From positions 1-64,000 of IMG/VR virus record IMGVR_UViG_3300031813_000669: DNA of 64,000 nucleotides; one strand, written 5' to 3'. Below, piece after piece: positions 4,734 through 30,670 of the stretch. Below the pieces are notes generated by a model that searched no databases, was not told the DNA's origin, and worked only from the letters and a program-made list of their open reading frames with translations. The first letter of the stretch is position 1; each line of letters opens with the position of its first letter. The position numbers and the translations under genes were made by a program. This stretch comes from a virus (taxonomy: Duplodnaviria > Caudoviricetes).

Positions 4734-4789
4734 GCTGATACTCCTTAACAGTATTAGAGGGTATAGATGTTGGTAGCATCGTGATACCC
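4734..4789 (-). ncRNA. structured endonuclease-leader element, copy A
   Basis: Sense: GGGTAT-CAC-GATG-CTACCAA-CATC-T-ATACCC-TCTAATACT-GTTAA-GGAGTATCAGC-ATG; TATAAATA on the minus strand at 4808-4815. Confidence 0.75.
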
Positions 4790-4991
4790 ATTTTTTATTG
4801 GTATTACTATTTATATTATATAGGAGTTTTAATGTTTATTGTCACTTTTATTCTGTATCAGTTATTTGGTTTCATTATGATATCCGCTGGTATATCTCCC
4901 ATTGATAATACTGCCCATTTCCTATCGTTATTCGGTATTCTGTTTGTGGTTGATATTCTCTCTTATCGGAATGCTCTGAGAGGCAATTAAT

Positions 4992-5180
4992 ATGATATAT
5001 TCTAAGTCTATTCTTATTCTCGGTGATACTGATATTGAATATGTGGTATCAAAGGAATATAATGATGATGGGTTTCCGGTGATTAACATTATATCAGACG
5101 GAAAACAAGTATTATCCCTATCCCATGAGGACGCAAAGGACATGGCAAAAGCACTCTCCGAACTGGCCAACGGCTATTAG
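4992..5180 (+). CDS. hypothetical phage protein
   Basis: 62 aa ORF with GAGG RBS. Confidence 0.55.
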   Translation: MIYSKSILILGDTDIEYVVSKEYNDDGFPVINIISDGKQVLSLSHEDAKDMAKALSELANGY

Positions 5181-5181
5181 G

Positions 5182-5344
5182 AATCAATCATTTACCGCAC
5201 CAATTCCTTCCTCCTTGCATCCAACCAGGGTCCGTGAGCATAGACTCTCACGGACTCACGGACGGTTGTTCACTAAACCTGCCAGCATTGTTTCACAAAT
5301 GAGCTGTCCGGACTGGTTGACTTCCTCCGTCCTTCTGATACAAT
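5182..5344 (+). promoter_or_regulatory. promoter cassette: AATCAATCATTT box, 9-bp hairpin GTCCGTGAG/CTCACGGAC (5230-5255), TGTTTC 5289, -35 TTGACT 5317, extended -10 TACAAT 5339
   Basis: Direct reading; same spacing as the 12.6 kb cassette. Confidence 0.6.
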
Positions 5345-5396
5345 AGTTTACATGAAGTGAGAGAAGGGTTCTCCCACAATAATTGGAGATTATATT

Positions 5397-5606
5397 ATGA
5401 GTATTGAAATTGTTGATTTTGTTGATGGTTTGGAAAAGCTTAGTTTTGAGCGTGCGGTAGAAAGTGTCGGTGAAAAAAGTTATGCCTACGCTTACGGTTA
5501 CTTTAATTCAGTAATGGCTAATACCTTGCACAATCTTAATCTGACGAAAAAGCAGAAAAAGATTCTGGAACAACAATTAAAGAATTGGAGCGTTAAGTAT
5601 GTTTAA
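5397..5606 (+). CDS. hypothetical phage protein
   Basis: 69 aa; GGAGATTATATTATG start directly after the promoter. Confidence 0.65.
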   Translation: MSIEIVDFVDGLEKLSFERAVESVGEKSYAYAYGYFNSVMANTLHNLNLTKKQKKILEQQLKNWSVKYV

Positions 5607-5861
5607 TCGTTATAGTGTTGATGTAGTAATAGATAATCAGGGTATTGAAAAGGGTTATGCAATCTTTGACAAATACCAGCAAGATTATATCGGAGACATT
5701 TATGAAGATAAGTGGCTCGCTATTGATGATTGTGACATAATGAATGAGGGACATGAACTTGAATATCAATAACCCTGTTGCAAAATTTGCACACAAAGTA
5801 AATAAGGCAGTTACTTTTAAGAGTAAGAAACAATATACCAGAAAAAACAAGAGGAATAACC

Positions 5862-6182
5862 ATGAGTGAAGTATTTGATTTGGATGAAGATATTGAACAG
5901 ATTATTGATTACTTTGACTTTGAAAAGTGTCATAAGGTAATGGAATTGCTTGAATGGGAGTGGTGGAATACTAATGGAGTCCCGTCTATTGGTCAAATGC
6001 GTCATTATGCCCGTAGAATAATCAGGGATTGTGTTCGTGGTATGTTGGAACTACCGACTGTTACCAAAGAATACAACATGGAATGTGGTGGTTTTCATGT
6101 GAATACGTATCAGGAGTATCCGGGTCAGAGGATTTATATTACTCTCCGATTCTCTTTGACCAGTTGGAGTAACATTGATTAA
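5862..6182 (+). CDS. conserved phage hypothetical protein
   Basis: DFEKCHKVM..L.W.W...GVP...GGF.V pattern; similar to the C-terminal half of 13442-13912. Confidence 0.65.
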   Translation: MSEVFDLDEDIEQIIDYFDFEKCHKVMELLEWEWWNTNGVPSIGQMRHYARRIIRDCVRGMLELPTVTKEYNMECGGFHVNTYQEYPGQRIYITLRFSLTSWSNID

Positions 6183-6689
6183 TGTTAGGAATTAAATGGA
6201 CAATTGGAATATATTCAGAATATGGTACTGAATATCTATCCAAGAATTCCAAAGATACGGAGTATTATTTGAGTGAATACATAGGCGAAGATACTATTAT
6301 ATGGCATGAACCAAATAGTCTGTTCCCTTTAAAGGAAGGACTATCTTGGTTGCCAATAGTAATAAAAGTTAGTTAGTAGTAGAGTAGTAGAAGAAAGTAT
6401 ATGCGAGTAAGAAAAATTAATGGAACATACCACAAAGTCCAGAGAAATAAACTATATCCTATTACTACCTATCAAGCAAAGAAGCTTATCAAAGACGGTG
6501 CAGAAGAATTAAAAGAAATCAAAATGAAATAGTATTGGTGTCATATGTTGAGTAGAATGATTGCTTTAATTTGGATTGGTGGGTCAATAGTCAATCCAGC
6601 CGGCACCAAAGTATTACTCGGAAAGAGTGTGGATTTTATCCATGCTCTTTTTTTGGTTGTTGTTCATTATATGAATACCGTAAACTAAT

Positions 6690-7067
6690 ATGACAAAAGA
6701 CGAATTTGCTGAATTAGGATTCACCCACGAAGTATTGCCATCGGGTCATATAAACATTATTAACACGGTACCATTCCTGTATAATAACACAAAAACAATT
6801 TGCTGTTATGGTGGGAAATACAGCAGAACCACGACTCACAAAGACCTTGCATTAGTGCTTTCTAATTTGTTTGAACTCAAAACAATAGAGCGCGCCTCCT
6901 TGAATTCCAAGACAGTCAGCAAGGAAAACACCAAAGAAGCACGCCAGACACGCCAGGCAGTAGAATCACCTCAACAAAATCAACAAGTTACAGAACCAAT
7001 TTCCACCAAAAAACGGCGCCGAACCAAAAAGACCAAAGCGACACCAGAACAGATTGTTTCCGAATAA
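6690..7067 (+). CDS. hypothetical protein with basic C-terminal tail
   Basis: 125 aa ORF; tail KKRRRTKKTK. Confidence 0.5.
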   Translation: MTKDEFAELGFTHEVLPSGHINIINTVPFLYNNTKTICCYGGKYSRTTTHKDLALVLSNLFELKTIERASLNSKTVSKENTKEARQTRQAVESPQQNQQVTEPISTKKRRRTKKTKATPEQIVSE

Positions 7068-7155
7068 GAAACAGTCTGTTTCGCATTTAGGGGCTAGACA
7101 AATTCTGGGATTGTGATAGAATGTATCCATAGTTTGAGACAACGCATTGATTTTT
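7055..7155 (+). promoter_or_regulatory. promoter cassette: TGTTTC x2 (7055, 7077), -35 TAGACA 7095, extended -10 TAGAAT 7117, conserved leader
   Basis: Leader 7117-7155 matches 12696-12734 at 38 of 39 nt. Confidence 0.65.
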
Positions 7156-7172
7156 AATTTAGGAGTTATATT

Positions 7173-7337
7173 ATGAAAGAGTTTAAAGTTACTTTTAGTG
7201 AAACCGTATACTTTACCACCATTGTTCAGGCTGAAACCCTTGAAGAAGCCCGGCTTGAATTCATGGAAGGAAATTTCGGTGATATTGAAGAAATTGACCG
7301 AGAATTCGGTGATATTGATGATGTTGAGGAGGTTTAA
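7173..7337 (+). CDS. small acidic DpnD/PcfM-like protein
   Basis: MKEFKVTFSETVYFTTIVQAETLEEARLEF...; AGGAG RBS; paralog of 2049-2219. Confidence 0.55.
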   Translation: MKEFKVTFSETVYFTTIVQAETLEEARLEFMEGNFGDIEEIDREFGDIDDVEEV

Positions 7338-7545
7338 TTATGAAACTAACAATCGTCAATAAAATTGACGGTAGTATTAGAACATTCAATGATAGACCAT
7401 CATCCAAAAAAGATGCGGAAGAAATGATTTGGAAGAGTAGGAATATAGTAAATTCGGAAGAATGGGATTATATTCTTATCAGTAATAAATCTAAAAAATA
7501 TCAATTTAATGAAAATGATGGTTTTTGGGAATGGGAGATAATCTA

Positions 7546-7749
7546 ATGGAAATAACAGAATTAAAACCTATTTCTGAGGAATGGAAGGAAGATTGTATTC
7601 ATCATCATGGTAAGGTATTAACAGGTAAATATAAACATTGGTGTCCTGAGTTTGATTATTTGCCCATTGATGAAACTATTGATGAATTTGAGTATTGTTT
7701 ATGTGAATTTGATGAAATGATTGATAAAGTTATTAAAGGAGAAAAGTAA
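7546..7749 (+). CDS. small His/Cys-rich hypothetical protein
   Basis: DCIHHHGKVLTGKYKHWCPEFDYLPIDET..EF..CLC; paralog at 13246-13449. Confidence 0.65.
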   Translation: MEITELKPISEEWKEDCIHHHGKVLTGKYKHWCPEFDYLPIDETIDEFEYCLCEFDEMIDKVIKGEK

Positions 7750-8246
7750 TGGGTCTTGATATGTATTTTACTGCAAAACGGTATGTTTCTGAATATGGTG
7801 ATGCAGATAAGGAATTGAGCACCAAGGTAAAGGATATTGTTGCACCCTTTGTACCAGAATGGAGTGTGAAAGAGGTTAGTTATCGGGTAGGTTATTGGCG
7901 CAAGGCTAATGCAATCCATAATTGGTTTGTTCAGAATGTCCAAGAAGGTGAAGATGATTGTAAGGAATACTATGTCAGTTCAGAATCTATTCAGGAACTA
8001 TATGAGGTAGTATGTGAGGTACTGGAATCAGGTAGTGCTGAGGTAGCTCAAGATAAACTTCCTACACATGAAGGATTCTTCTTTGGCAATACTGTTATTG
8101 ATGATTGGTATTTTTCAGACTTGGAAGATACCAAGAGAATGTTGCAACCACTTATTGATGCTTATAATCAAGCAAAAGAATTGGGAACTAAGTCTTATAC
8201 TCATCCGATTTACCAGTATGAGTTTTATTATAAATCAAGTTGGTGA
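7749..8246 (+). CDS. conserved phage hypothetical protein
   Basis: MGLDMY...GYWRKANAIHNWFV...GFFFG family pattern common in phages. Confidence 0.7.
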   Translation: MGLDMYFTAKRYVSEYGDADKELSTKVKDIVAPFVPEWSVKEVSYRVGYWRKANAIHNWFVQNVQEGEDDCKEYYVSSESIQELYEVVCEVLESGSAEVAQDKLPTHEGFFFGNTVIDDWYFSDLEDTKRMLQPLIDAYNQAKELGTKSYTHPIYQYEFYYKSSW

Positions 8247-8249
8247 GTT

Positions 8250-8834
8250 ATGAAAACAAGTGATTATGGTATTATTATTCTGTTGAGTGTTGGTCTGTTG
8301 GCCAATTCTATTGCAGACATTAAGTTGGAAAAGAGAGTATCCAGGTTGGAGAAGCGAGGTGAGGTTGAGGTAACGCTTGAGAAGGTACCAGAGGTAACAC
8401 CGGTCCCGATCAATACATATAATGGTCCGAGGTTGTATAATAACAAGACTAGAATTGTATTGTTTGATAAAAAGGAATTTACTTGTTTAGCTGAAAATGT
8501 ATTTTACGAATCTGGACACCAATCTTATATTGGCAAGATCGCAGTATTACAGACGGTTTATAATCGAGCAGAGACAGGTAAATGGGGGTATAGTTTCTGT
8601 AATGTAATCCATGCGGATAAACAATTCTCTTGGACTCTGAAAGAACAAAAGAAACCAAGAGGTTCTGCCTGGGTGGCATCAAAGGATGCGGTAAGGGCAT
8701 TCCTAAACGGAGTGAGGGTACGAAACCTATCCTCGACTGACCATTATCATGCAAATTATGCGTCACCATATTGGAATGTTTCCATGAAGAAAACTGCCAT
8801 CATTGGTGACCATATTTTTTATGCTTCTAGGTAA
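8250..8834 (+). CDS. cell wall hydrolase, SleB/Hydrolase_2 family, with N-terminal membrane segment
   Basis: CLAENVFYES...GKIAV...VYNR...QFSW...TDHYHANY..PYW...IGDHIFY. Confidence 0.85.
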   Translation: MKTSDYGIIILLSVGLLANSIADIKLEKRVSRLEKRGEVEVTLEKVPEVTPVPINTYNGPRLYNNKTRIVLFDKKEFTCLAENVFYESGHQSYIGKIAVLQTVYNRAETGKWGYSFCNVIHADKQFSWTLKEQKKPRGSAWVASKDAVRAFLNGVRVRNLSSTDHYHANYASPYWNVSMKKTAIIGDHIFYASR

Positions 8835-9558
8835 CTATATGATCCGAAATCAATACCTTTTTCCATTTTGATTTCGGATCATCACATAGGGAACATATAC
8901 TGGTTTTTGATTTGTATCCATAGTGTTTAGCTGCAGCTGGGGCTGATCCAAATATATCACCATTTGGATCAATATAATAGTATTTGGATTTTCCTTTATT
9001 TGATGGTTCTTTTCCTTTTAACCTATCGGACATTTTTTTTCTTTGTTCGTCACTTAGATTTTTAGGTTTTCTTAATTTCTGTTTCCATTCTTCAGTAAAT
9101 AATTTACCTTTATTTGGTCCAGTATAATCGGTTAGTTTACGAGTAATCCAAGATTCTCTCAGTTTTTGTTTGGTGTTTTCAGAATGTTGTTTCCCTAATA
9201 ATGATTCTGATAATTTTTTACTATGTTCTGGGGTTCGCACTCTGCCTTTTAACCTTTGACTTATTTGTTTTCTTGTTTTTTCAGATATTATTGTACCGGA
9301 TGCACCTTCTCCACCATCAGTCATATTACGAAGTATACCAGTACTATTATCCTTTCGGCCGAACCAACGGATATAATATCTTTCTAATATGAATGATTGT
9401 AATTCTGTAAGGTTATCTTGAACTATTATTATTTTATTTTTATCTTTTGGTGGTTTAATTCTGTGATTTGATGAATACATTCGTTTGTTTTTACCTTTAC
9501 CAACATAATAAGGTGTAAAATCTTCTCTGAGATAAAAATATACGTAATAAATATTCAT
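8827..9558 (-). CDS. GIY-YIG homing endonuclease with NUMOD3-like repeats
   Basis: YYVYFYLR...PYYVGKGK..R...ERYYIRWFGRKD...ILRNMTDGGEG, followed by HSENTKQKL-type repeats. Confidence 0.9.
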   Translation of the reverse strand: MNIYYVYFYLREDFTPYYVGKGKNKRMYSSNHRIKPPKDKNKIIIVQDNLTELQSFILERYYIRWFGRKDNSTGILRNMTDGGEGASGTIISEKTRKQISQRLKGRVRTPEHSKKLSESLLGKQHSENTKQKLRESWITRKLTDYTGPNKGKLFTEEWKQKLRKPKNLSDEQRKKMSDRLKGKEPSNKGKSKYYYIDPNGDIFGSAPAAAKHYGYKSKTSICSLCDDPKSKWKKVLISDHIVT

Positions 9559-9559
9559 T

Positions 9560-9614
9560 GCTGATACTCCTGTTTAGTATTAGAGCCATTAAGTCTGCCA
9601 GGACTGTGAATGGC
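9560..9614 (-). ncRNA. structured endonuclease-leader element, copy B
   Basis: Sense: GCCATT-CAC-AGTC-CTGGCA-GACT-T-AATGGC-TCTAATACT-AAACA-GGAGTATCAGC-A-ATG; TATAAATA on the minus strand at 9659-9666. Confidence 0.75.
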
Positions 9615-9625
9615 ATTTTTTGTGC

Positions 9626-9655
9626 TTGACAAAAACACCTAGTTTGGTGTATAAT
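9626..9655 (+). promoter_or_regulatory. sigma70-like promoter TTGACA-18-TATAAT
   Basis: Consensus hexamers upstream of ORF 9691. Confidence 0.6.
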
Positions 9656-9690
9656 ATGTATTTATATTAGTTTGTAATTGGAGATAAGTA

Positions 9691-10635
9691 ATGTTTGATA
9701 CATGGTTTGATAAAGTTTTCTTTGGTTTTTTGGGTTTATTGTTTTTTGCAATGATTATTATTCTTTTTGTTGGAATGCCTATGAGTGTTCATATAAACGA
9801 ACAATGTTATCAGAAAGGGTATACTGGTGGTGTGTATACCAGTAATGGTATTTACTGTCATAAGACAGGTCAATTTGGTGAAGATATTGTGGAGAAACTG
9901 TAATGAATAGTCACGATAAATTTGGTGTAATTTTATTCAGTTTGTTGATTGTTGGTGTCACTATTTGTATTGTAACAGGAATATTGACAAACAGAGAAAC
10001 CACTAAACAATATATTGAAAATGGTTATCAGGAATGTTGGCATCCTATTTCTGGTACTAAGTGGCAGAAGGAGTGTCAAAAGTTATGAGTAAAGTTACCG
10101 ATACTCCAACATTTTCATATACTGGAAATACTACATTTACTTTTGCAGACGCTCAAGCAGTTTCATTTACAACACCTATTGGTGATCTTTACCTTTATGG
10201 TAAGGATAATAAGACCAAATATATGTATGTTCCGCAAGATGATATTACTGTTCTTGAGTTATCATTAATCATGAGATTGTTTATCTCTGCATTACTTGCG
10301 TCTAGGGGATATATTCATTATAATTATTGGGGATATGTAAAGGAACATAATCTTGAAAGACATTTTGTGGAGAAACTGTAATGAATGAAAAGATTAGAGA
10401 ACTTGCTGAACAGGCGGAAGAAATGTGCTTGCGCGCCGAACCTTGGCGAATTTTGTCGGTCTGCCAATCAGTAGACAAGGTTTGGAGAGAAAAGTTTGCC
10501 GAATTGATTGTCAAAGAATGTGCAAGTATTTGCGAACATAGATATACCTATATGAATAAAGATATGTCAGAAGGAGCATTTGAGGCAATGGCTTGTCACG
10601 ATTCAATTTTAGAACATTTTGGTATTGAATATTGA
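9691..10635 (+). other. cluster of four small hypothetical ORFs (9691-9903 and 9903-10088 are membrane-anchored; ~10085-10381; 10381-10635)
   Basis: TAATG/ATGA-coupled ORFs in the ORF track. Confidence 0.6.
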
Positions 10636-10647
10636 GTAATATTCCAT

Positions 10648-10655
10648 TATAAATA
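10648..10655 (+). promoter_or_regulatory. T4-type late promoter TATAAATA
   Basis: Exact consensus, 3 nt before leader copy C. Confidence 0.7.
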
Positions 10656-10658
10656 GAT

Positions 10659-10713
10659 ATAGGTCACGGAATTGCAGTTCCCACCTATTCTAATACTATA
10701 ACGGAGTATCAGC
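10659..10713 (+). ncRNA. structured endonuclease-leader element, copy C
   Basis: ATAGGT-CAC-GGAA-TTGCAG-TTCC-C-ACCTAT-TCTAATACT-ATAAC-GGAGTATCAGC-T-ATG. Confidence 0.75.
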
Positions 10714-10714
10714 T

Positions 10715-11425
10715 ATGGATATTTATATCCCCACTATATTATTAATCAAACGACACAATAAAACTGGAAAGAAGTATTTCCACAAAACTACCAAACTTGA
10801 TTTAATTGAATCATATCCGGGTTCTGGAAAACATTGGAAAAAACATTTAAAGAAACACGGTAATAATTGGACTAATATCTGGATTAGTGAAGTTTTCCAT
10901 AATAAAGACGATTTAGTTGAATTTGCAGAATTTGTTAGTGAAGTATTAGATATTGTTAAAAGTGATGAATGGGCAAATCTCATACCAGAAAATGGATTAG
11001 ATGGCGGTAGCATATCAGAATATTATACTGAAGATATTCGTAAGAAAATGAGTGAATCTAAGAGAGAGTTTTTAAAGAATAATCCTAATCCACATATTGG
11101 TTTAAAAAGAAGCGAAGAAACCAAAAGAAGAATAGGAGAGAAATCTAAAGGAAGAAAATCTTGTCTTGGTTGGATACCGTCTGAAGAAACTAGAAAGAAA
11201 ATAGGAAATGCTAATAGAGGTAAAATACGAACATTAGAAACAAGAAAACTAATGTCTGAAAATCACAAGGGAAAATTACATTCAGAAGAAACCAAAAATA
11301 AACTAAGAGAAATTAATAAAGGGAAGAAAATGGTTTTTGTTGAGAGAGTATGTCCATATTGCAATAGAATTGGCAAAGGTCCAAATATGACTAGGTATCA
11401 TTTTGATAATTGTAAGGAGAAATAA
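10715..11425 (+). CDS. GIY-YIG-like homing endonuclease with NUMOD3 repeats and C-terminal zinc finger
   Basis: TILLIKRHNKTGKKYFHKT...YPGSGKHW...WANLIPENGLDGG; repeated SEETKRRI/SEETRKKI/HSEETKNKL; CPYC...HFDNC. Confidence 0.85.
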   Translation: MDIYIPTILLIKRHNKTGKKYFHKTTKLDLIESYPGSGKHWKKHLKKHGNNWTNIWISEVFHNKDDLVEFAEFVSEVLDIVKSDEWANLIPENGLDGGSISEYYTEDIRKKMSESKREFLKNNPNPHIGLKRSEETKRRIGEKSKGRKSCLGWIPSEETRKKIGNANRGKIRTLETRKLMSENHKGKLHSEETKNKLREINKGKKMVFVERVCPYCNRIGKGPNMTRYHFDNCKEK

Positions 11426-11426
11426 T

Positions 11427-12734: not shown

Positions 12735-12748
12735 TAGGAGATTATATT

Positions 12749-14831: not shown

Positions 14832-15869
14832 ATGGAGATATACAATGTCCTGTTTCAGGATATTTCATATCTGTGGATGATATTCTTCATTATGATCTCT
14901 GCCGGACTAGCAAAGGAGTATAAACTATTTGCCCCGGCTTACGCCTATGTTAAGAATACATTCCGCAGTAATAAATTCGTAGTAGTTATCCTAAGCGCAA
15001 TCGGTGGTATTCTGCCGATTGAAGGTCGAGTTACTGTATCAGCTGGGTTACTTGATACGGTGGCTCCAAAATGTTGTCATGGCCGACAAAAGTTAGGAAT
15101 CGTGGACTATCTAGCGACACACCACTATTATATGTGGTCACCGTTAGAGAAAACTGTTATTCTACCTATTGCGGCTTTTGGTCTTACATATTGGGGCTGG
15201 CTCACCTTAATTGCACCCATGTTGATTGTTAGTTTGGTATTCATTACATGGTACATTTGGCACCAGGTACATGATGAAGAAGTACCAATCACACCTGGGA
15301 ACTTCAAAATCAGTTCAGTATTGAGAGATCCAATACCTATGTTCCTTGCAATCGGAGCGTATGTATATGGTATCGACCATATTGTATGTTTTGGATTGCT
15401 GACAATGTATTATATTCTTATTACACAACAATGGTCTCCTAGGAAACTGTTGGGATATGTTAAATGGAATGTATTGACTATTGTTGGTGCAGTTATTGTC
15501 TTAGGAAACTACATTAAAACCCACGAGCAAGATTTTCATAATCTTATTCTTAATATTGGTATTGATGTTCACACCTATTCCGGTCTGGCGACAATTTCTG
15601 CTATTGGTTTTCTTGCTAGCTTCTTAATGGGAAGTTCTGGTAAGTTTGCGGCGATTGCTGTATTAATGTCTCAAGTCTACGGACATGAGTATTTTCTATG
15701 GTTTTTTGCAGTAGATTTCTCAGCGTATCTATTGAGTCCTACCCATAAATGTGTCATTATCGGTCACAAGTATTTCAATACACCATTGAAAACTTATTAT
15801 AAGGCCTTAGGCACTTGGGGATTCCTTGTATTATTAACAGGAGCAATAGTTACATACTTCAAAATTTAG
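14832..15869 (+). CDS. polytopic inner-membrane transporter/permease (DUF401- or ion-transporter-like)
   Basis: 345 aa with ~9-10 hydrophobic segments; GILPIEGRVTVSA, THHYYMWSP, SSGKF and LSPTHKC motifs; GAGG RBS. Confidence 0.65.
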   Translation: MEIYNVLFQDISYLWMIFFIMISAGLAKEYKLFAPAYAYVKNTFRSNKFVVVILSAIGGILPIEGRVTVSAGLLDTVAPKCCHGRQKLGIVDYLATHHYYMWSPLEKTVILPIAAFGLTYWGWLTLIAPMLIVSLVFITWYIWHQVHDEEVPITPGNFKISSVLRDPIPMFLAIGAYVYGIDHIVCFGLLTMYYILITQQWSPRKLLGYVKWNVLTIVGAVIVLGNYIKTHEQDFHNLILNIGIDVHTYSGLATISAIGFLASFLMGSSGKFAAIAVLMSQVYGHEYFLWFFAVDFSAYLLSPTHKCVIIGHKYFNTPLKTYYKALGTWGFLVLLTGAIVTYFKI

Positions 15870-15878
15870 GAGTATTAC

Positions 15879-18032
15879 ATGAAAAAAATTATTTTAATTT
15901 TGGGGCTTCTTATTGCCCCTAGTATCGCTTTGTCTTTAGATATCCATACACTAGAACCTGTCGATGTATGGGGTGATAATTATCATCAGGCTGACATGAA
16001 TACACTAACCACAGTTGGTGGTCGTATTCCCGTTTTACCTATTGATAGTTCAAGAAATGTTCAAATCATTAATGAAGAAACAATCAAGGATCGTGGTACA
16101 CAATCTTTGAATCAGGCTATGCAGAATAGTGTTTCTGGTATTGATATTAATGCCAATGCTTCTGACCCGAATCGTAGTAATTTTATGATTCGTGGTTTCC
16201 AGATTGACGATGATTGGGGTACCAAGATTGACGGTCAAATGGAATTAGAATGGGCCGATTTTGAATGGTTTGATGTTGACCACATGGAAGTATCTAAGGG
16301 TCCTAATGCAGGAACCATGGGACTGTCAGATCCAGGTGGGTTTGTTAATTATGTTACCAAGAAGGCAAATTGGAATGATCCCCTTCTTGAATTCACTCAG
16401 AATGGTGGTTCTTATGGGTACACCAAAACCAACATTGCCTACACCACTCCTGTGAACGATTGGATGGCGTCTAGGACTGTGGCCACATTTACCAATGGAC
16501 AAACCCCATGGTTGAATAATGGTTATAATAGTACGCCTGATAAGATGCGTGGATTCTTCGGTCAAAACTTTATGTTTAAATTGGGGGAGAAATCTAGTCT
16601 GCAATTTGATATTCGTAATCTTTATGATTCTCAGAATTATGGTGCAGACAGTTATCTTCCTGCTGTTGGTTTTGGTCCTGCACCAATCAATATCAGAACC
16701 AATATGGCTTCCCCACAAGATTTTGTTCGATTGAATAATACCAATGTTGGCTACCAATTCAATACTGAAGTTGATGATAAAGTCTCATTTCATCACGATT
16801 TCAAGTATCAGTCTAATAGTAGAGTATACAAATACATGATGCCATATAATCTTGTGAATAACAAGATTTTACAGCTAAGTTATTATGATTTCAATACAGT
16901 AAAACAGTATGAGAGTACCGATAATTATTTTACATTTAAATATGACTTATTTGGATTAAAGAATAATCTCGTTACTGGTTTTAATTATATCAATTCAAAT
17001 ACTAATACTGTTAATAATTCTACTGTACCGTTGAGTACCGATACTTGTACGTCCACTAATGCAATTTGGTGTTTGAACATTTATAATCCTTCTTATGCTG
17101 GATTTAATTGGGTTACTGGTGCAACAGCAACAGCAACAAACGGTAATAGTGGTACTGGAGGTGGTCGTAACGATAACACAGCTCAGGGTGCATTTAGTCA
17201 ACAAAATGCAGCTGTATATGCACAAGATGAATTGTATCTGATGGATAATTGGATACTGAATACTGGTGTTCGTTATAATCATACCTATCAAAGTGGAACT
17301 GGAATCAATTCACCAACCAATACAAAGGTCAATCCTAATGTTGGTATGGTGTATAAGATTCTACCTAATCTGTCAGTATATGCTGATTATGCTCAAGGTT
17401 TTATGCCTCAAACTCAGGTCAATATGGGTTATGCACCACCGCAAAATTCATATCAGACTGAAACCGGTATTAAATTGATTGATAAGGACTATTCGTTTAC
17501 TGCCTCTTGGTTTACTCTTAACAGAACCAATGCACAAACTACCAATCCTAATGCACCAAATTATGTTACTTATACTGGTGAAGTCAATACAAATGGTTTT
17601 GAATTGGATGGGATGTATAAACTACCTTGGGTTGAAGGGTTATCAATTCGTGGTAACTATGCGAACCTAAATAGCTCTATAACCAAAGATTTAGATCCAG
17701 CATTAATTGGCAATAAGTTCCCATCAGTACCTAAGAATCAAGGTGGTGGATGGGCCATGTATGATACTGTGGCCTGGGAACTACCAATGGGATTTGGTAT
17801 AGGGTTTATGCACTCTGGTCAGAAATATGGTGATACTGCAAACTCTTTTGTATTGCCGGCATATACCACAATGGATATGATGGGATATGTTGATTTGACC
17901 AAGAATGCTAAATTGAGTCTGAATCTAAAGAATGTTACTAACGAAAAGTATTATGCGGCCGCATCAAATCGGTATGCTATTTTACAAGGTCAACCATTTG
18001 TAGCAATCGTTAACCTGGAGATTAAATTCTAA
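15879..18032 (+). CDS. TonB-dependent outer-membrane receptor (siderophore/metallophore type)
   Basis: Signal peptide, TonB-box-like TLEPVDV, plug (NVQIINEETIKDRG..SLNQAM; FMIRGF; EVSKGPNA..GL..PGGFVNYVTK), beta-barrel motifs (PQNSYQTETGIK; LSLNLKNVTNEKYY) and C-terminal Phe. Confidence 0.93.
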   Translation: MKKIILILGLLIAPSIALSLDIHTLEPVDVWGDNYHQADMNTLTTVGGRIPVLPIDSSRNVQIINEETIKDRGTQSLNQAMQNSVSGIDINANASDPNRSNFMIRGFQIDDDWGTKIDGQMELEWADFEWFDVDHMEVSKGPNAGTMGLSDPGGFVNYVTKKANWNDPLLEFTQNGGSYGYTKTNIAYTTPVNDWMASRTVATFTNGQTPWLNNGYNSTPDKMRGFFGQNFMFKLGEKSSLQFDIRNLYDSQNYGADSYLPAVGFGPAPINIRTNMASPQDFVRLNNTNVGYQFNTEVDDKVSFHHDFKYQSNSRVYKYMMPYNLVNNKILQLSYYDFNTVKQYESTDNYFTFKYDLFGLKNNLVTGFNYINSNTNTVNNSTVPLSTDTCTSTNAIWCLNIYNPSYAGFNWVTGATATATNGNSGTGGGRNDNTAQGAFSQQNAAVYAQDELYLMDNWILNTGVRYNHTYQSGTGINSPTNTKVNPNVGMVYKILPNLSVYADYAQGFMPQTQVNMGYAPPQNSYQTETGIKLIDKDYSFTASWFTLNRTNAQTTNPNAPNYVTYTGEVNTNGFELDGMYKLPWVEGLSIRGNYANLNSSITKDLDPALIGNKFPSVPKNQGGGWAMYDTVAWELPMGFGIGFMHSGQKYGDTANSFVLPAYTTMDMMGYVDLTKNAKLSLNLKNVTNEKYYAAASNRYAILQGQPFVAIVNLEIKF

Positions 18033-22954: not shown

Positions 22955-22960
22955 AATTTC

Positions 22961-23002
22961 TTGACAAAAATGGTCAGAAATTGATATAATCCAGTATAAA
23001 TA
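22961..23002 (+). promoter_or_regulatory. tandem promoters for pmoC: TTGACA-18-TATAAT and T4 late TATAAATA (22995-23002)
   Basis: Exact consensus hexamers and octamer 85-125 nt upstream of the pmoC ATG. Confidence 0.7.
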
Positions 23003-23087: not shown

Positions 23088-23864
23088 ATGGCTACTATTG
23101 CTAAAGATGTTGTAACGTCAGAGGCACCACTACTCAATAAGGCGTGGTTGACCGCTGCATTTGGTATCTATGCTGTGTTCTATTTCTGGGTACGTTGGTA
23201 TGAAGGCGTATACGGATGGGCTGCAGGACTAGATTCATTCGCACCAGAGTTTGAAACTTATTGGATGAATTTCTTGTATACAGAAATTGTCCTAGAAGTG
23301 ACAACTGCAAGTATTCTATGGGGTTATATTTGGAAGTCAAGGGATCGTAACCTTGCCGCTATTACTCCAAGGGAAGAACTCCGCCGTAATATGACACACC
23401 TTGTATGGTTGTTTGCATACGCAAATGCAATCTACTGGGGTGCATCATACTTTACTGAACAGGATGGTACTTGGCATCAGACTATCGTAAGAGATACTGA
23501 TTTTACTCCAAGTCATATCATTGAGTTCTACCTGTCATACCCAATCTACATTATCACTGGATTTGCGGCATTCTTGTATGCCAAGACCCGTCTGCCATTC
23601 TTTGCAGAAGGTCTATCCCTGCCTTACCTGGTGACTGTGGTTGGTCCTTTCATGATTCTACCTAATGTTGGCCTCAACGAATGGGGACACACCTTCTGGT
23701 TCATGGAGGAACTCTTTGTGGCTCCCCTCCATTACGGATTTGTGTTCTTCGGATGGTTGGCACTAGCAATTGCAGGAGTTCTTCTCCAAGTGTTTGCCTC
23801 ATTTGGCAACCTTATTGGCAAAGAAGTAACTGAAGCAGTAGACAGTGGTCTTATTGCTAAGTAA
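23088..23864 (+). CDS. pmoC: particulate methane monooxygenase subunit C (gammaproteobacterial type), phage auxiliary metabolic gene
   Basis: VRWYEGVYGWAAGLDSFAPEFETYWMN, RDRNL..ITPREELRR, GASYFTEQDGTWHQTIVRDTDFTPSHIIEFYLSYPIY, PNVGLNEWGHTFWFMEELFVAPLHYGFV. Confidence 0.98.
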   Translation: MATIAKDVVTSEAPLLNKAWLTAAFGIYAVFYFWVRWYEGVYGWAAGLDSFAPEFETYWMNFLYTEIVLEVTTASILWGYIWKSRDRNLAAITPREELRRNMTHLVWLFAYANAIYWGASYFTEQDGTWHQTIVRDTDFTPSHIIEFYLSYPIYIITGFAAFLYAKTRLPFFAEGLSLPYLVTVVGPFMILPNVGLNEWGHTFWFMEELFVAPLHYGFVFFGWLALAIAGVLLQVFASFGNLIGKEVTEAVDSGLIAK

Positions 23865-23894
23865 ATTTAAGATTAACTTACGTCTAATCTTATG

Positions 23895-23920: not shown

Positions 23921-23935
23921 ATTTCGGAGAAAAAT

Positions 23936-24421: not shown

Positions 24422-24425
24422 AAAT

Positions 24426-24450
24426 AAAGGGGAACTAAGTTCCCCTTTTT
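24426..24450. terminator. bidirectional rho-independent terminator
   Basis: AAAGGGGAAC-TAA-GTTCCCC-TTTTT between convergent genes. Confidence 0.85.
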
Positions 24451-24451
24451 A

Positions 24452-24808: not shown

Positions 24809-24906
24809 ATTATTCTCCTAATTTAAAAATACGAATTATTTATAGGGCTTGACAACCCTGTGTGGTTGTGTTACAATGGTCCCCTAAATTATGTTATGGT
24901 GATCTT

Positions 24907-25287
24907 ATGTCAAATCTTGATGCGTTCTTTGAACCCGCCACTCTCCATGATCTTGGTAAATTTCTGACCGATGACGAACAGAAATCATTGACCAAGGCAG
25001 AAGTCCAATCCAAAATTCGTCAGCGTCGATCTCAGATGCTGGTGCATTCCCGTATCTATTATGTCCTTGATGAAAATATCGTTTCTGACGATAAATGGCA
25101 ACAATGGGCAAACGAATTGCGTGATCTACAAGAACAATATCCTAAGTATTGTAAAATAGATTTTTATGATCGTGAGTTTGCAACGTGGAATGGTGATTCC
25201 GGTGCATTCCTTCCGTTGAATGATCCTTATGTAGTGGGTAAGACTCAACAAGTTATTAACCAATGGTATAAAGAAAATGAAAAGTAA
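24907..25287 (+). CDS. stand-alone NAD+-dependent DNA ligase N-terminal (domain Ia)-like protein
   Basis: HSRIYYVLDENIVSDDKWQQWANELRDLQEQYP resembles LigA H..YY..D.P.ISD..YD....EL..LE..YP; promoter TTGACA-17-TACAAT at 24849-24877. Confidence 0.6.
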   Translation: MSNLDAFFEPATLHDLGKFLTDDEQKSLTKAEVQSKIRQRRSQMLVHSRIYYVLDENIVSDDKWQQWANELRDLQEQYPKYCKIDFYDREFATWNGDSGAFLPLNDPYVVGKTQQVINQWYKENEK

Positions 25288-27466
25288 TACACCGAAAACC
25301 ACCTATGATTCTGATGATTTGGGTATTATTTTATCTGGTCAAAAAGAAAGTAAACCAGTATACATGAAGTGTGCTTATAATTATTATAAGATTAAACGTG
25401 TGGTTGACATGGGTGATTTCTATATGTTAGAATCCCCCGAAGAAGATGGTGTTATAGGATTAGACGATGAGTAATATCTATCAACCTTTAGTATATACCA
25501 GTTTCAAAGGTAAATGTTATGAGTTTCCTGAAGAATTATCTGAAAGGTGGGATTTCCTAACTACTAAATTGGTATATGCAGAACAAGAGAATTTCGAAGA
25601 ACTATTGCGTGGATATTCAATAGTATTTAAATATGAGTTCGGTCAATATGAGATAAAATCTTGAGGTAATATTATGAATGATGAAGTAAAACAACTACTT
25701 CTTGATTGTCAGGTATTGTTTGAAATGGAATATGGTGATAAGTGGAAAATTCTAAGTAATGATTCTAAACTTAAACAAACCATGTTGAAATTGAAAGAAG
25801 TATTGGGTGAAGAATGAAAGTATACATTGGACCATATACACATTGGATCGGACCATATCAGATTGCTGATTGGTTAGAGCATTTTTGTGTTCTTGAAAGG
25901 GACCGTGATCGTATTGGTGAATGGTTAGCCAATACTTGGGTCAAAGATTTCTGTCAATGGATTGAAGATAAAAAAAGCCGTAATATGTTTATTCATATTG
26001 ACGGTTATGACGCATGGAATGCCGATGATACCATGGCAAGAATCATTCTACCTGTTATGAGAAAGGTCAAGGAAAATAAACAGGGATATGGTTTTATTGA
26101 TGATGAAGATGTTCCAGAAGAAATTCGTTCTACTAATGCTGGTCCTAAAGAAAATGAATGGGATTGGGATGATAATGCAGAAAAGCGTTATGAATGGGTA
26201 TTAGATGAAATCATCTGGGCATTTGAACAGATTCTAGCTCCTAATGCAGAAGACCAATTCCATACTGGTGTTATTGACCATATATGGGAACCATGTGAAA
26301 ACTCAAACCTGAGTAAATTAGGTCATGGACCAAAACATACCCATGAGTTTGATATAGATGGATATAAGGTCTGGTCTAAGAGAATTGATAACGGAACAAC
26401 CTTATTTGGTAAGTATTTCAGAACATTTTGGACTTAATGGTATAGTATATGTCGGACGAAAATACAAAAGTAAAACATTCTAAACGTATATTTCATACTG
26501 AAACAGTTATTGCTAAGAGAAGAAAACTTCTTAAACAGTATAATATGGATTGGGATAACAACAGAATGATTAAACAGAAACACCGTCTATCTAAGATGAA
26601 TGGTATCAACTGTGGTAATCCGGGTTGTATGTTGTGCATTAACCCCAGAAAGTATGGTGAAAAGACCATTCAAGAATTAAGTTTTGAACAAACAGAAAAG
26701 TGGAGTGAAGAATGATTGAATTTGAGAAAGATACTTGGGAAGAGTTTGTATGCAATTTTGCTGGCAAATTAAGTGTTGGGTATACCATCGAAGATGCTTT
26801 GAAAAATTTTCTGAAAGAATATTGGACAGTTCTCAATGTTCTGGAAAGTAAAGCAATGGAAGAAGAGAAAGAAGAATCTCTTGATGCTTACTTTGAACGC
26901 AGAATGAAACCTGTGTGGAATTATGTGTATAATCTGAATAGAGAAATTGGTAAGTTAAAGGCTGATGTTGCTCTATTGAAGGAAGCTGATGCTGCCAGAA
27001 CAATGACTTATGGTCCTATAAAGTATCCAAATAATATTCCACCGACTCATGAATATCCACTGGATTGGTATAAAGTTACCGCACATTCAAATGCACAAGA
27101 TAATCAACGTATTCCTGGTTTGATGCCAGAAGGATTTGCAACTACTGGTTATATGCAAGTAGTAGATCCAAAGTATACAGCTGCACAGATGAAAGATTGG
27201 TCTGGACTGAGGTTCGATGATCCGGCAGAGAGAAGGTAATGAATTTACTTAATTATTTTGGTGCTAGAAGGAGGTTAGTTGAGGTAAACAAAACCATTAT
27301 GGCTATGGGTGGTGAAGAGGAAGCACCCCCATTACTTTTAGCTCAAAGTGATATGACAGCTGATGAGGTAACATATTTCTACTATGAATCAATTTCTGAT
27401 GTGATATATACTTTTATATTCTTATTGATTTTAATTGTTGGATATGGAGCAGCTGATGCCCTGTAA
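25277..27466 (+). other. cluster of hypothetical ORFs (25277-25474, 25467-25664, ~25816-26437, 26449-26715, 26712-27239, 27239-27466)
   Basis: Coupled ORFs in the ORF track; no recognisable catalytic motif. Confidence 0.6.
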
Positions 27467-27470
27467 AAAA

Positions 27471-27968
27471 ATGATATTGGATATTTCATTGTCAGAATTG
27501 AACAGTGAACTACAGTATGAAAAAGAAGGATTTTTCACCCGAAAAAACTCAAAAGGTGGAAAAATTATAGGTTCCAGAGCAGGAAATATTGATAGAAATG
27601 GTTATGTACACGTTTCCATCAATAAAAGAAGGTATCTAGAACATCGATTGGTTTGGTTGTATCACCACGGTTATTTACCAGATAACTTTATCGACCATAT
27701 CAATAGAAATCCTTCTGACAATAGAATAGAAAATCTCAGAATTTGCCCAAATAATCATAGACAAAATGCACAAAATACTGGCAAATTTTCACATAATACA
27801 TCTGGACATAAAGGTGTAGGTTGGTCTCCAGGAAAAGGTAAGTGGAGAGCAGTAATTGGTGTTAAAGGTAAGAGTATACATTTGGGTTATTTCAAAGATA
27901 AAGTGAGTGCAATACAAGCTAGGAAAATTGCCGAAAAGCAATTCTTTGAATTTAGTGAAGAGGATTAA
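27471..27968 (+). CDS. HNH endonuclease with C-terminal AP2 DNA-binding domain
   Basis: YLEHRLVWLYHHG...IDHINRNPSDNRIENLR; SGHKGVGW...KWRAVIGV.GKSIHLGYF. Confidence 0.9.
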   Translation: MILDISLSELNSELQYEKEGFFTRKNSKGGKIIGSRAGNIDRNGYVHVSINKRRYLEHRLVWLYHHGYLPDNFIDHINRNPSDNRIENLRICPNNHRQNAQNTGKFSHNTSGHKGVGWSPGKGKWRAVIGVKGKSIHLGYFKDKVSAIQARKIAEKQFFEFSEED

Positions 27969-27971
27969 ATA

Positions 27972-28708
27972 ATGGGTTTCGACCTAATAACAAAGAGAGA
28001 TTGTCCGCATTGTGGTAAAGAAATTGGTGGAGGTCGTGGTAACCTAAAGACCCACATGAAAAAGTGTGCCAAGAAACTTGGTATTCTCGAAGATGTATTT
28101 GTACCCGTAAAGGAAATAAAAGGAGAAAATGAAATGAGTCTATTTGTTGAAGTGCATTCACTAGAAAAAGGGTGTCAGGTTATTATTAACCTAGATCATG
28201 TTATTGAAATTGCACCATTGGTTGCTGGTGGTTGTGCATTGTTTATGACTGATGGTTCTAATAAGATTTCGATCAATGTGGCTGATTCGTATGAACTATT
28301 CAAGCAGTTTGCCATGCAGACCGTTAGCTCAGAAGATATTGCAAGAAAGATTAAGTCATTGAAGGGTGCATAATGTCTAGGATCAGTTTTACTTTTAGTG
28401 ATAGAACGTATGAATCTATTGGTCCAGTGTGTAATGGTGAAAAACTTCAAAAACCAAAGAAACCTGAAAAGGTTGTTAATCTTGAAATTGATAATGTAGA
28501 ATCGATGCACATTGCTGAAATTGTTCATCACTTTGAACAATTCTTGAAGTCTAGTGGATATGTTATCTACGGAAATATTCGTGTTGTTAATCCTGGTTTC
28601 GAGTCACAACAAGAAAAATATTTTGGTACAATGTGGAAAGAACCTGATACTATTACAACTGTAAATGTATCAGCACAAACTCCACAAAATGGTAGATGGC
28701 AACTATAG
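27972..28708 (+). other. two hypothetical ORFs (27972-28373 with N-terminal CxxC..H..C finger; 28373-28708)
   Basis: ORF track; the first also has an internal GGAG RBS before MSLFVEVH. Confidence 0.55.
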
Positions 28709-28756
28709 TGTTTAGATAAATACCTGATTAATTAACAACTAATTAGGGATTTATAA

Positions 28757-30064
28757 ATGTTCATATTAGTAATAGACCCATGTGGTTTAACACTTGACTG
28801 GTGCCTACGCTGTATTGCAGCTGGGCACACAGTCAAACTTTTCACAGAAGGTAAAAAAGCAGAACCAATTGGACAGGGACTTGTTGATAAGGTAACCAAT
28901 TGGAAAAAGTATGTTGATGTTGCTGATTTAATATTTTCTTCCGACAATCTGAAATACATGGATGAAATTGATGACCTTATCAAAAAAGGTTATCCAGTAT
29001 TTGGTCCAGGTAAAAGAGCCGCAAAACTAGAACTTGATCGTATGTATGGTCAAGACGTTATCAAAGAATTTGGTGGTCCAATCATACCATCATATCCATT
29101 CAAGAATTACGACCAAGCAATTCAATTCATCAAAGATAATCCTAAGAGATATGTTTCTAAGCCAATAGGTGAAGAAGAAGATAAATCTCTGTCATATGTT
29201 GCAAAAGATGAGGCAGATATGATTGGATTCTTATCTAAGAGAAAAGAACTAGGTAAGGCCGCATCATTTATTCTACAAGAATTCAAACCCGGTGTCGAGG
29301 TAGCGGTAACAGGTATTTTCGGACCAGGTGGTTGGGAACCCTATTGGTGTGAAGGATTCGAACACAAAAAATTAATGGTTGATGAAAAAGGTCCCAATAC
29401 AGGTGAAATGGGAACTGTTATTCGTTACACCAAATACTCTAAACTAGCAAATATACTAATGAAACCAATGGAAGAAACTCTTCATAAGATTGGTTATGTT
29501 GGTATGTTAGACGTTAATGTTATTGTTGATGAAAAAGATGGTACACCATGGCCGATGGAATGGACCGCACGTCCAGGTTACCCGATGTTCAACATCATGT
29601 TGTCTCTCCATAAAGGCGATCCTGCCGAATGGATGTTAGATTGTGTCAAAGGTAAAAACACTCTGGAAGTTGAGGAGAAGACTGCCGTTGGTGTTGTTAT
29701 CTGCAACTCTGACTTCCCTTGGGCTAAGAAGCCAATCGAAACCTATCTTGATTTCCCTATTATCACAGATGATTGTGATATTGACCACGTTCATCCTTGT
29801 GAAGTAAAACTATGTACAACCATGAAGATGATTGATGATAAGGTTGTGGAAGATATTCCAGAATGGGGAACCGCAGGTACCTATGTTTGTGTTTGTACTG
29901 GTGTAGCTGATTCTATTACTGAAGCAAAAGATAAGGCTTATAAACAAATTAAAAATGTTAAAGTAGGAAATGACTACGGTTATCGTACTGATATTGGTGA
30001 AAAATGCGAAAAATATCTCAAAAAATTAAAGAAATTTGGTTATTGCACAGGATGGCGTTTTTAA
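28757..30064 (+). CDS. PurD (phosphoribosylamine-glycine ligase)-like ATP-grasp enzyme, divergent
   Basis: PVFGPGKRAAKLELDR.YG, LQEFKPGVEV, EHKKL.....GPNTGEMGT, GYVGML, EWTARPGYP, YRTDIG: PurD architecture with altered signatures. Confidence 0.75.
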   Translation: MFILVIDPCGLTLDWCLRCIAAGHTVKLFTEGKKAEPIGQGLVDKVTNWKKYVDVADLIFSSDNLKYMDEIDDLIKKGYPVFGPGKRAAKLELDRMYGQDVIKEFGGPIIPSYPFKNYDQAIQFIKDNPKRYVSKPIGEEEDKSLSYVAKDEADMIGFLSKRKELGKAASFILQEFKPGVEVAVTGIFGPGGWEPYWCEGFEHKKLMVDEKGPNTGEMGTVIRYTKYSKLANILMKPMEETLHKIGYVGMLDVNVIVDEKDGTPWPMEWTARPGYPMFNIMLSLHKGDPAEWMLDCVKGKNTLEVEEKTAVGVVICNSDFPWAKKPIETYLDFPIITDDCDIDHVHPCEVKLCTTMKMIDDKVVEDIPEWGTAGTYVCVCTGVADSITEAKDKAYKQIKNVKVGNDYGYRTDIGEKCEKYLKKLKKFGYCTGWRF

Positions 30065-30615
30065 TCAATTTTCTTACATTTCCATCCTTTATATTGATTT
30101 AATTTATTTTTTGACACCATATTCATACAACCAACATTTAAATTATTTTCTCTACAAAACTTCGACATATTTTTTATAATATATGACTTTCCGGCAGGAT
30201 CAATAATCAACCAATTACATGATTTTGATTCTGCCACTTTCAATATATGATTTTTATCTTTTGGTTTACCCTTATTAATACATCCATATCTGTTACCTTT
30301 GAAATGTAAGCTTATTTCTTTTTTTCTTTTTTCTGTATGTTTGTAACCAATAGTACTTTCGCCGCCATCTGTTTTATTGTGTAGAATTCCAGATCCATTA
30401 TCTTTTCTACCAAACCAACGTATGTAATATCTTTCCATCATCAAAGCTTGGATTTCAGACAAATCTTGTTTTATAAAGATTATTCTGGATTTGTCTTTCG
30501 GAGTGGAAATTCCATGTTTCCTATGACATTTATAGGCTCTATTTTGCTTTCCTTTTCCAACATAATATGGTGTATAATTTGAACGCAAATATAAATAAAC
30601 GTAATAAATACTCAT
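30061..30615 (-). CDS. GIY-YIG homing endonuclease
   Basis: YYVYLYLR...PYYVGKGK.NRAY...ERYYIRWFGRKD..SGILHNKTDGGE; close relative of 8827-9558. Confidence 0.9.
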   Translation of the reverse strand: MSIYYVYLYLRSNYTPYYVGKGKQNRAYKCHRKHGISTPKDKSRIIFIKQDLSEIQALMMERYYIRWFGRKDNGSGILHNKTDGGESTIGYKHTEKRKKEISLHFKGNRYGCINKGKPKDKNHILKVAESKSCNWLIIDPAGKSYIIKNMSKFCRENNLNVGCMNMVSKNKLNQYKGWKCKKID

Positions 30616-30670
30616 GCTGATACTCCTGTTTAGTATTAGAATAGGTGGGGATTGCAGTCCCGTGACCTAT
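30616..30670 (-). ncRNA. structured endonuclease-leader element, copy D
   Basis: Sense: ATAGGT-CAC-GGGA-CTGCAA-TCCC-C-ACCTAT-TCTAATACT-AAACA-GGAGTATCAGC-ATG; TATAAATA on the minus strand at 30674-30681. Confidence 0.75.

Follow-up and report, generated by a model that had tools for sequence, protein, structure and literature searches.

Analysis of a 64,000-nt window (positions 1 to 64,000) of the uncultured virus record IMGVR_UViG_3300031813_000669 (Duplodnaviria; Caudoviricetes) revealed four copies of a compact cassette situated directly before the start codons of homing-endonuclease-like genes. The window belongs to a 73-kb IMG/VR record of an uncultured T4-like phage, with an estimated completeness of 44%, and carries a T4-type baseplate module. 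On balance, the cassette is probably a portable control unit of some 90 bp that sits at the 5′ end of mobile homing-endonuclease genes, as part of them, and makes a cis-antisense RNA repressor of them. The evidence for this reading comes from the strand on which the fold of the cassette is selected, from a promoter-like box conserved within the first codons of the nuclease genes, and from the position of the cassette at the end of a mobile insertion.

A sequence-only reading of this DNA had described the four copies as a structured mRNA leader shared by endonuclease genes of unrelated families. Scanning the window for the invariant part, TCTAATACT-N5-GGAGTATCAGC, returned exactly four matches versus 0.01 expected by chance, and the four copies were all recovered with the positions, stems, bulges and loop that had been described (Table 1). 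The outer stems are GGGTAT/ATACCC, GCCATT/AATGGC and, in two copies, ATAGGT/ACCTAT, and the inner stems are GATG/CATC, AGTC/GACT, GGAA/TTCC and GGGA/TCCC; a CAC bulge, a loop of 6–7 nt and a C/T bulge are found in each. A gene-strand late-promoter box, TATAAATA, lies upstream of every copy, one per copy, as had been noticed, and adjoins the stem (3 nt) in copies 3 and 4 only. The assignment of the downstream genes was likewise upheld, with one His-Me (endonuclease VII-like, HNH) gene and three GIY-YIG-like genes, two of which carry NUMOD3 motifs; the N-terminal domain of the copy 4 nuclease shares 57% identity with its copy 2 counterpart. A covariance model (R1) searched against the 73-kb record found only the four known copies, in line with the earlier remark that the other three endonucleases of the window lack the element. 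Absent from that earlier description was the string TATTTAT, which is kept in codons 2–4 and, on the other strand, reads as the late-promoter box.

The exact hairpin 2 motif was then scanned across IMG/VR and matched at least 119 loci, a lower bound. All of them have the same layout, composed of a (T/G)ATAAATA box, a 3–5 nt spacer, a bulged stem-loop of variable sequence (stem-loop 1), a GGAG hairpin (hairpin 2), the start codon, and a fixed TATTTA(T); the invariance of hairpin 2 among these first loci was imposed by the search pattern. Model R1 was trained on 85 non-redundant cassette copies, while the covariation statistics were obtained from 110 distinct copies, divergent ones included, with shuffles and slid pairing partners as controls. 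Identical alignment columns were used to compare pairing on the mRNA strand and on the opposite strand, and elements read on the strand opposite the nuclease gene are marked with a prime (stem-loop 1′, hairpin 2′).

Two-sided changes were observed at 16 of the 19 pairs (429 cells, versus 98 ± 9 in shuffles and at most 44 with slid partners), and RNAalifold, unaided, predicted the same structure, which bears out the proposal of a real, covarying structure under selection. The supposedly invariant hairpin covaries as well, at five of its eight pairs after the divergent copies are added. The selected fold is on the strand opposite the endonuclease gene. Standard pairs amount to 98.8–99.1% on the antisense strand versus 92.1% on the mRNA strand and, outside the loop-closing pair, the antisense strand shows 161 G·U cells versus one A·C. 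The minimum free energy is lower on the antisense strand in 106 of 107 cores (mean −17.2 versus −13.4 kcal/mol). The A·C mismatch described for the second hairpin is an invariant G·U on the opposite strand, and the divergent copies contribute 19 further antisense wobbles in hairpin 2 and no A·C. On the sense strand, hairpin 2 keeps the invariant A·C and forms no more than 5 bp, and its loop contains the Shine-Dalgarno GG. Likewise, the middle base of the so-called CAC bulge pairs with the so-called pyrimidine bulge, giving G-C in 74 copies, G·U in 22, A-U in 14 and A·C in none on the antisense strand, whereas the mRNA strand of the 85-copy set gives 25 A·C and no G·U at this pair. Since the cassette occurs in both orientations relative to its neighbours, strand-specific mutation bias cannot explain these figures. 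The idea of a structured mRNA 5′ leader with a C-loop-like protein module was thus not sustained, as the fold fits the antisense strand and the apparent mismatches are G·U pairs there.

The loops and bulges of stem-loop 1 have regularities of their own. The six-base loops end in U·G or C·A in 45 of 49 cases and in G·A in the other four, never in a Watson-Crick pair, and the loop-end bases (for example, those of window positions 10672-10677) share 0.98 bits of mutual information. Reverse-complement pairs of loop sequences are found across copies, and both bulged G residues hardly vary. A search for covariation indicative of loop-loop (kissing) contacts between the stem-loop 1 loop and the N5 loop of hairpin 2 gave no signal (best mutual information 0.22 bits, p = 0.11).

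The second line of evidence comes from the beginning of the reading frames. An M-x-I-Y start is present in 67 of 91 downstream open reading frames (ORFs) of unrelated families; codon 3 is ATT in 65 of these 67, versus 41% of isoleucine codons elsewhere in the same genes (p = 2 × 10^-21), and codon 2 ends in T without exception. ORFs that begin with M-Y-L (ATG TAT TTA) keep TATTTA in another frame at the same distance to the hairpin. On the opposite strand, codons 2–4 read (A)TAAATA, the core of a T4-type late promoter, with every position of the antisense TAAATA kept in 107–111 of 111 copies. This box precedes the first paired base of hairpin 2′ by 6–7 nt in 80 of 110 copies, so that a transcript would begin right at the hairpin, and a promoter written into the first codons would explain why unrelated nucleases share the M-x-I-Y start. 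Three divergent copies, L175/L186 and a pair in L091, carry at the place of the antisense late box, and in its direction, a sigma-70 promoter of the extended −10 type that is near-perfect (TTGACA-17-TG-TAAAAT/TATAAT); two promoter classes at one position and in one direction provide independent support for antisense transcription. On the gene strand, the sense late box lies 3–5 nt 5′ of stem 1 in 87 of 110 copies.

We infer from this arrangement a mechanism with two convergent late promoters, whose boxes are separated by about 80 bp. Transcription from the gene-strand box would give the nuclease mRNA, with its 5′ end at the base of stem-loop 1 or slightly inside it, while the opposite box (xxT ATT TAT in the codons, read as ATAAATA) would start an antisense RNA 0–2 nt before hairpin 2′. 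This RNA would consist of hairpin 2′, with 8 bp, a fixed G·U and an anti-Shine-Dalgarno CC within the 7-nt loop, followed by stem-loop 1′, with 11 pairs and two bulged G residues, and would measure approximately 65–75 nt if it ends in the U-rich tract that follows. It would be fully complementary to the ~57-nt mRNA leader, the Shine-Dalgarno sequence and the AUG, and pairing of the two RNAs in vivo may block ribosome binding, create an RNase III substrate, or both. The predicted outcome is that production of a potentially harmful nuclease would be held down.

Membership of the cassette in a mobile unit, as had been suggested, was confirmed at a purD-like gene beside copy 4, where many relatives have empty sites and a few have filled ones. 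In the empty sites, purD is separated from the next gene by 34 nt, and this stretch consists of a TTGACA-17-TATAAT promoter that overlaps the stop codon of purD. In both locus L167 and the window, an inverted nuclease gene plus its cassette is situated between the last purD codons and the TTGAC box, with the insertion ending no more than 6 nt from the sense TATAAATA; in the window this end falls at the copy 4 tail (30671..30684) and is followed directly by the TTGACT box of the next gene. Loci L175/L186 carry at the same junction a nuclease with 49% identity and a divergent cassette, and together these comparisons identify the cassette as the end of a mobile unit. GTAGTT/AACTAC, the stem type found most often, stands before ORFs that are unrelated to one another, which fits an exchange taking place in their common first codons. 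For copy 3, a second comparison with empty sites yielded one distant relative only, without synteny. Locus L170 (2745-3371) bears a different insert of ~620 bp at the purD junction, with a forward Cys-rich HNH-like ORF behind TATAAATA, and no R1 cassette was found at that spot.

The portability across nuclease families that had been claimed was also borne out, as the cassette precedes GIY-YIG, HNH/His-Me and TnsA-like genes; Pfam searches of the downstream ORFs gave NUMOD3 (37), HNH-type (16), GIY-YIG/SegE (6) and TnsA-like (2) domains. In three large phage records, R1 found 16 (360 kb), 7 (244 kb) and 4 (328 kb) copies, and others were found elsewhere. In the 360-kb IMG/VR record (G002; loci L132-L156), the hairpin 2′ sequences of the 16 copies are strongly diversified yet paired, and may represent specificity classes. 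Intact cassettes also stand before truncated ORFs of 10–45 aa (L023:8958-9068, L142:1431-1520, L091:1813-1842, L049:4296-4430), indicating that the cassette can outlive its nuclease gene. Among named phages, neither megablast of the region nor blastn of the cassette gave a match; the only named carrier, Variovorax phage V45v66, emerged when a protein search was combined with the covariance model, with one R1 match before a homologous nuclease (55 bits, E = 4.5 × 10^-11). This copy (L200:1501-1588, corresponding to PV558790.1 85988-86075, an unannotated record marked 'UNVERIFIED') has a compensated hairpin 2, CTAATGTT/AACATCAG, and an antisense TAAATA box located 9 nt deeper in the ORF. The Synechococcus phages S-SRM01, S-N03, B23 and S-B68, which encode homologous nucleases, gave no significant R1 match (best score in S-N03, 16.8 bits, E = 0.47; none at E ≤ 1 in the other three). 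In prokaryote genomes, the exact motif was found in only five contigs of metagenome-assembled genomes from unrelated taxa, which are probably misbinned phage contigs and not a cellular home. The four loci had no match in Rfam 15 on either strand, at gathering score or E ≤ 1, consistent with the earlier impression that this is no named RNA family, and no description of the cassette was found in the searchable literature.

Several observations weigh against an antisense repressor. The promoters on both strands are motif matches, and TATAAATA is not enriched in the AT-rich window (12 versus 11 expected), so the promoter argument rests on position and conservation, not on counts. Conservation of TATTTAT could be due in part to the GIY motif, given that the antisense box is shifted by whole codons in a few GIY-YIG genes. 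In copy 1, this box is degenerate (CATATATA). The conserved bulged G residues and the U·G/C·A loop closure are left unaccounted for by simple antisense pairing and hint at a specific recognition step. The remaining objections concern the tail. The tract after stem-loop 1′ contains on average 6.1 U per 10 nt and in most copies is complementary to the sense promoter. In favour of the antisense reading, a U6 run is retained there in copies 1 and 2 of the window, neither of which has an adjacent sense promoter. The longest U run is three in 78 of 110 copies, which makes the tract weak as an intrinsic terminator, and a simple terminator scan did not call the U-rich tail of the cassette. The 3′ end of the antisense RNA is therefore uncertain, and the transcript may read into the neighbouring gene.

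This tail leads to the main rival explanation, which we consider somewhat unlikely, namely that the cassette is a two-faced promoter or insulator that, much like the terminator/promoter composites called PeSL, would let late transcription resume beyond the insertion, the antisense RNA being a leader or leaky terminator for the neighbour and nuclease control being secondary. It is consistent with the weak U-tail, with the location of the cassette exactly at the insertion boundary adjoining the early promoter of the neighbour, with the several intact cassettes ahead of truncated ORFs, and with the TTGAC boxes behind the tail in 20 of 110 cassettes and the perfect sigma-70 promoter behind copy 2. 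The neighbour beyond the cassette is co-directional with the antisense transcript in 60 of 95 cases, often within 15–130 nt. However, it is opposed in the other 35, where the antisense RNA would be transcribed into the neighbour, and another set gave 18 co-oriented, 20 opposite and 6 mixed neighbours. The element and its tail are kept equally well in both orientation classes, with no difference in U-tail strength (p = 0.33 and 0.11). The neighbours, moreover, own promoters, empty sites need no such leader, and a start exactly opposite the AUG with coverage of the Shine-Dalgarno sequence would be left without an explanation. The narrower proposal that the antisense RNA is merely the leader of a divergent neighbour was rejected in view of the mixed orientations and of U-tails that do not differ in strength between the classes.

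An improbable alternative is a read-through mask of the T4 type, following the principle of lysozyme (e) and I-TevI, in which, on transcripts arriving from further upstream, the AUAAAUA of the sense promoter region pairs with the UAUUUAU after the AUG and closes the leader, so that only transcripts from the late promoter are translated; such a mask may coexist with an antisense RNA. There is precedent for it (PMC3014915), and the two boxes are exact reverse complements that bracket the leader. In copy 3, the segment AUAUUCC (10639-10645, +) pairs with GGAGUAU in the Shine-Dalgarno region of read-through transcripts (z = −4.2); this mask before the late promoter is of the classical T4 type and is not kept in the other copies. 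Against it, both boxes are invariant and so show no covariation that would bear it out. TATTTAT persists without an adjacent sense box (window copy 2, L067, L056, L085), a 75-nt multiloop would be only weakly closed by 7 bp of A-U, and the antisense bias of the internal stems would not be accounted for.

The model of the sequence-only reading itself, a cis-acting mRNA leader with a second hairpin over part of the Shine-Dalgarno sequence and possible protein binding at the CAC/Y loop, taken here together with a 5′ stem-loop that would stabilise the transcript, now appears very improbable. The sense strand does pair at 92%, the sense late box stands immediately before stem 1 in most copies, and leader hairpins are known for T-even homing endonuclease genes (PMC3014915). 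Yet the 161 antisense G·U cells would be A·C mismatches on the mRNA, against one case of the reverse, and hairpin 2 would have to work with the shortened, mismatched fold described above; at a 3-nt spacing, a late transcript would miss the first bases of the outer stem, and the nucleotide-level conservation of TAAATA in codons 2–4 would have no explanation. Hardly credible, finally, is a recombination or capture site like integron attC made of single-stranded DNA hairpins with extrahelical bases: DNA hairpins tolerate G·T too, the two conserved bulged bases and the cassette-end position recall attC, and identical stem types precede unrelated ORFs, but the cassette is not accompanied by an integrase or any other recombinase, the fixed promoter-box spacing at both ends and the same-direction sigma-70 replacement argue for transcription, and the occurrence of both orientations relative to flanking genes means that the fold is not tied to the replication strand.

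Among known systems, the antisense repressor reading finds a parallel in IS10/Tn10, where the ~70-nt structured antisense RNA-OUT covers the translation start of the mRNA and blocks ribosome binding (PMC5006887). Both concern the gene of a selfish element, with a convergent promoter just inside the gene and the initiation region covered. In the cassette, such a convergent opposite-strand promoter within the 5′ end of the ORF is present at the level of motifs, and a stable fold is selected on the antisense strand. In contrast to RNA-OUT, the cassette has late-type boxes, a leader overlap of ~57 nt, two hairpins and homing-endonuclease cargo, and the Rfam search, even at E ≤ 1, provided no match that would indicate homology with RNA-OUT. 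The T-even leaders (I-TevI, I-TevII/III, segB, Aeh1 mobE, e, soc, 49) are gene-specific mRNA hairpins (PMC3014915) that, as proposed for the cassette, combine a late promoter before a selfish nuclease gene with RNA structure near the Shine-Dalgarno sequence limiting expression. Their structures, however, are intramolecular and contain the late promoter within the 5′ arm, whereas one cassette serves many unrelated genes, its fold is on the opposite strand, and its sense promoter is located outside and upstream of the structure (87/110).

CfrI of the T4-like cyanophage S-PM2 is an antisense RNA, detected by experiment, overlapping a free-standing homing endonuclease gene (Millard et al. 2010, as cited in PMC2984593 and PMC5931967). 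CfrI is reported to measure ~225 nt, to connect psbA with the endonuclease gene and to come from a single locus type, unlike the predicted RNA of ~70 nt of the cassette, which is repeated and portable. The PeSL elements of T4-type phages comprise a sigma-70 early promoter and a terminator between co-oriented ORFs (PMC2839356, PMC4122927) and resemble the cassette as short conserved promoter and stem-loop units at the borders of exchanged variable genes, a position that the cassette occupies at the purD junction (≤6 nt). The cassette differs in its two facing late boxes, its overlap with the start codon and its tie to nucleases; a sigma-70 promoter with a terminator between ORFs of a hyperplastic region was not its arrangement, sigma-70 promoters being part of it only in L175/L186 and L091.

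Type I toxin-antitoxin systems with 5′ overlap, such as symE/SymR (review PMC3874152), also hold down a harmful nuclease-like protein with a cis-antisense RNA over the ribosome-binding site; the cassette, in contrast, belongs to a lytic phage, has a mobile homing gene as cargo and is not known to involve addiction or differing RNA stability. A rather unlikely extension of the antisense repressor reading is that each nuclease and its private antisense 'antidote' form a portable pair of this type, with cross-regulation and competition between phages. If it were true, the variable stem-loop 1 would give copy-specific recognition and the shared hairpin 2 would permit cross-regulation between copies and co-infecting phages. 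The cassette would then be an immunity to the nuclease expression of a rival, beyond self-restraint, and the bulged G residues with the U·G/C·A closure would mark an RNA-RNA kissing or protein-recognition step.

Table 1. Features of the four cassette copies in the window (window coordinates; late-promoter and sigma-70 boxes are motif matches).
Feature	Position	Strand	Details
Invariant motif, copies 1–4	4734-4758(-), 9560-9584(-), 10689-10713(+), 30616-30640(-)		Pattern scan
Copy 1 gene	4113..4733	-	His-Me (endonuclease VII/HNH-like), 206 aa, M-S-I-Y start; phrog_1035, E 1e-16
Copy 1 antisense-strand promoter box	4721..4728	+	Degenerate CATATATA, codons 2-4
Copy 1 hairpin 2′	4735..4757	+	CUGAUACU/AGUAUUAG, third pair G·U, anti-Shine-Dalgarno CC in loop
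Copy 1 stem-loop 1′	4759..4789	+	6 bp, bulged G, 1 pair, bulged G, 4 bp
Copy 1 U-rich tail	4790..4799	+	AUUUUUUAUU, after stem-loop 1′; no adjacent sense promoter
Copy 1 sense late-promoter box	4808..4815	-	TATAAATA, 18 nt 5′ of stem
Copy 2 gene	8827..9558	-	GIY-YIG-like + NUMOD3, 243 aa, M-N-I-Y start
Copy 2 antisense-strand promoter box	9546..9553	+	AATAAATA, codons 2-5
Copy 2 hairpin 2′ and stem-loop 1′	9561..9614	+	Hairpin 2′ 9561-9583, stem-loop 1′ 9585-9614
Copy 2 U-run	9615..9622	+	AUUUUUUG
Perfect sigma-70 promoter	9626-9655	+	TTGACA-18-TATAAT, 12/12, directly after copy 2 U6 run
Copy 2 sense late-promoter box	9659..9666	-	TATAAATA, 44 nt 5′ of stem; terminator-like hairpin (9650-9635) between
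Copy 3 sense late-promoter box	10648..10655	+	TATAAATA, 3 nt from stem
Copy 3 stem-loop 1′ and hairpin 2′	10659..10712	-	Stem-loop 1′ 10659-10688, hairpin 2′ 10690-10712
Copy 3 antisense-strand promoter box	10720..10727	-	TATAAATA, codons 2-5
Copy 3 gene	10715..11425	+	GIY-YIG-like + NUMOD3 repeats, 236 aa, M-D-I-Y start
Copy 4 gene	30061..30615	-	GIY-YIG-like, 184 aa, M-S-I-Y start
Second antisense-strand late-promoter box, copy 4	30590-30597	+	TATAAATA, 6 nt 5′ of copy 4 antisense box, within nuclease ORF
Copy 4 antisense-strand promoter box	30603..30610	+	AATAAATA, codons 2-5
Copy 4 hairpin 2′ and stem-loop 1′	30617..30670	+	Hairpin 2′ 30617-30639, stem-loop 1′ 30641-30670
Copy 4 U-rich tail	30671..30684	+	Complement of sense TATAAATA (30674-30681, -)

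Other genes of the window were also identified. A circularly permuted (two-piece) transfer-messenger RNA (tmRNA) gene is located at 33781-34139 (+), with 83 bits for RF04321 and 61 bits for alpha_tmRNA. A full-length AmoC/PmoC homologue lies at 23088-23864 (+; PF04896, E = 3 × 10^-122), with TATAAATA upstream at 22995-23002, and suggests that the phage infects an oxidiser of methane or ammonia. Additionally, the region 14832-18032 (+) contains a gene for a DUF401 membrane protein and, after it, one for a TonB-dependent receptor of 717 aa, which is complete with a Plug domain and a barrel.

To our knowledge, the way in which free-standing homing endonucleases are made harmless to their phage has been worked out for only a handful of T-even genes, where every gene has a separate mRNA hairpin, and antisense RNA control is almost unexplored in lytic phages, with CfrI as the lone documented case that we know of. 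Here, one covarying cassette, present in up to 16 copies per genome, serves GIY-YIG, HNH and TnsA-like nucleases in many uncultured large or T4-like phages and points to antisense RNA as a control principle for these genes. Model R1 offers a sequence handle with which mobile nuclease genes, and the borders of their insertions, can be located in metagenomes, and a cultured phage-host pair with Variovorax phage V45v66 makes the idea directly testable.

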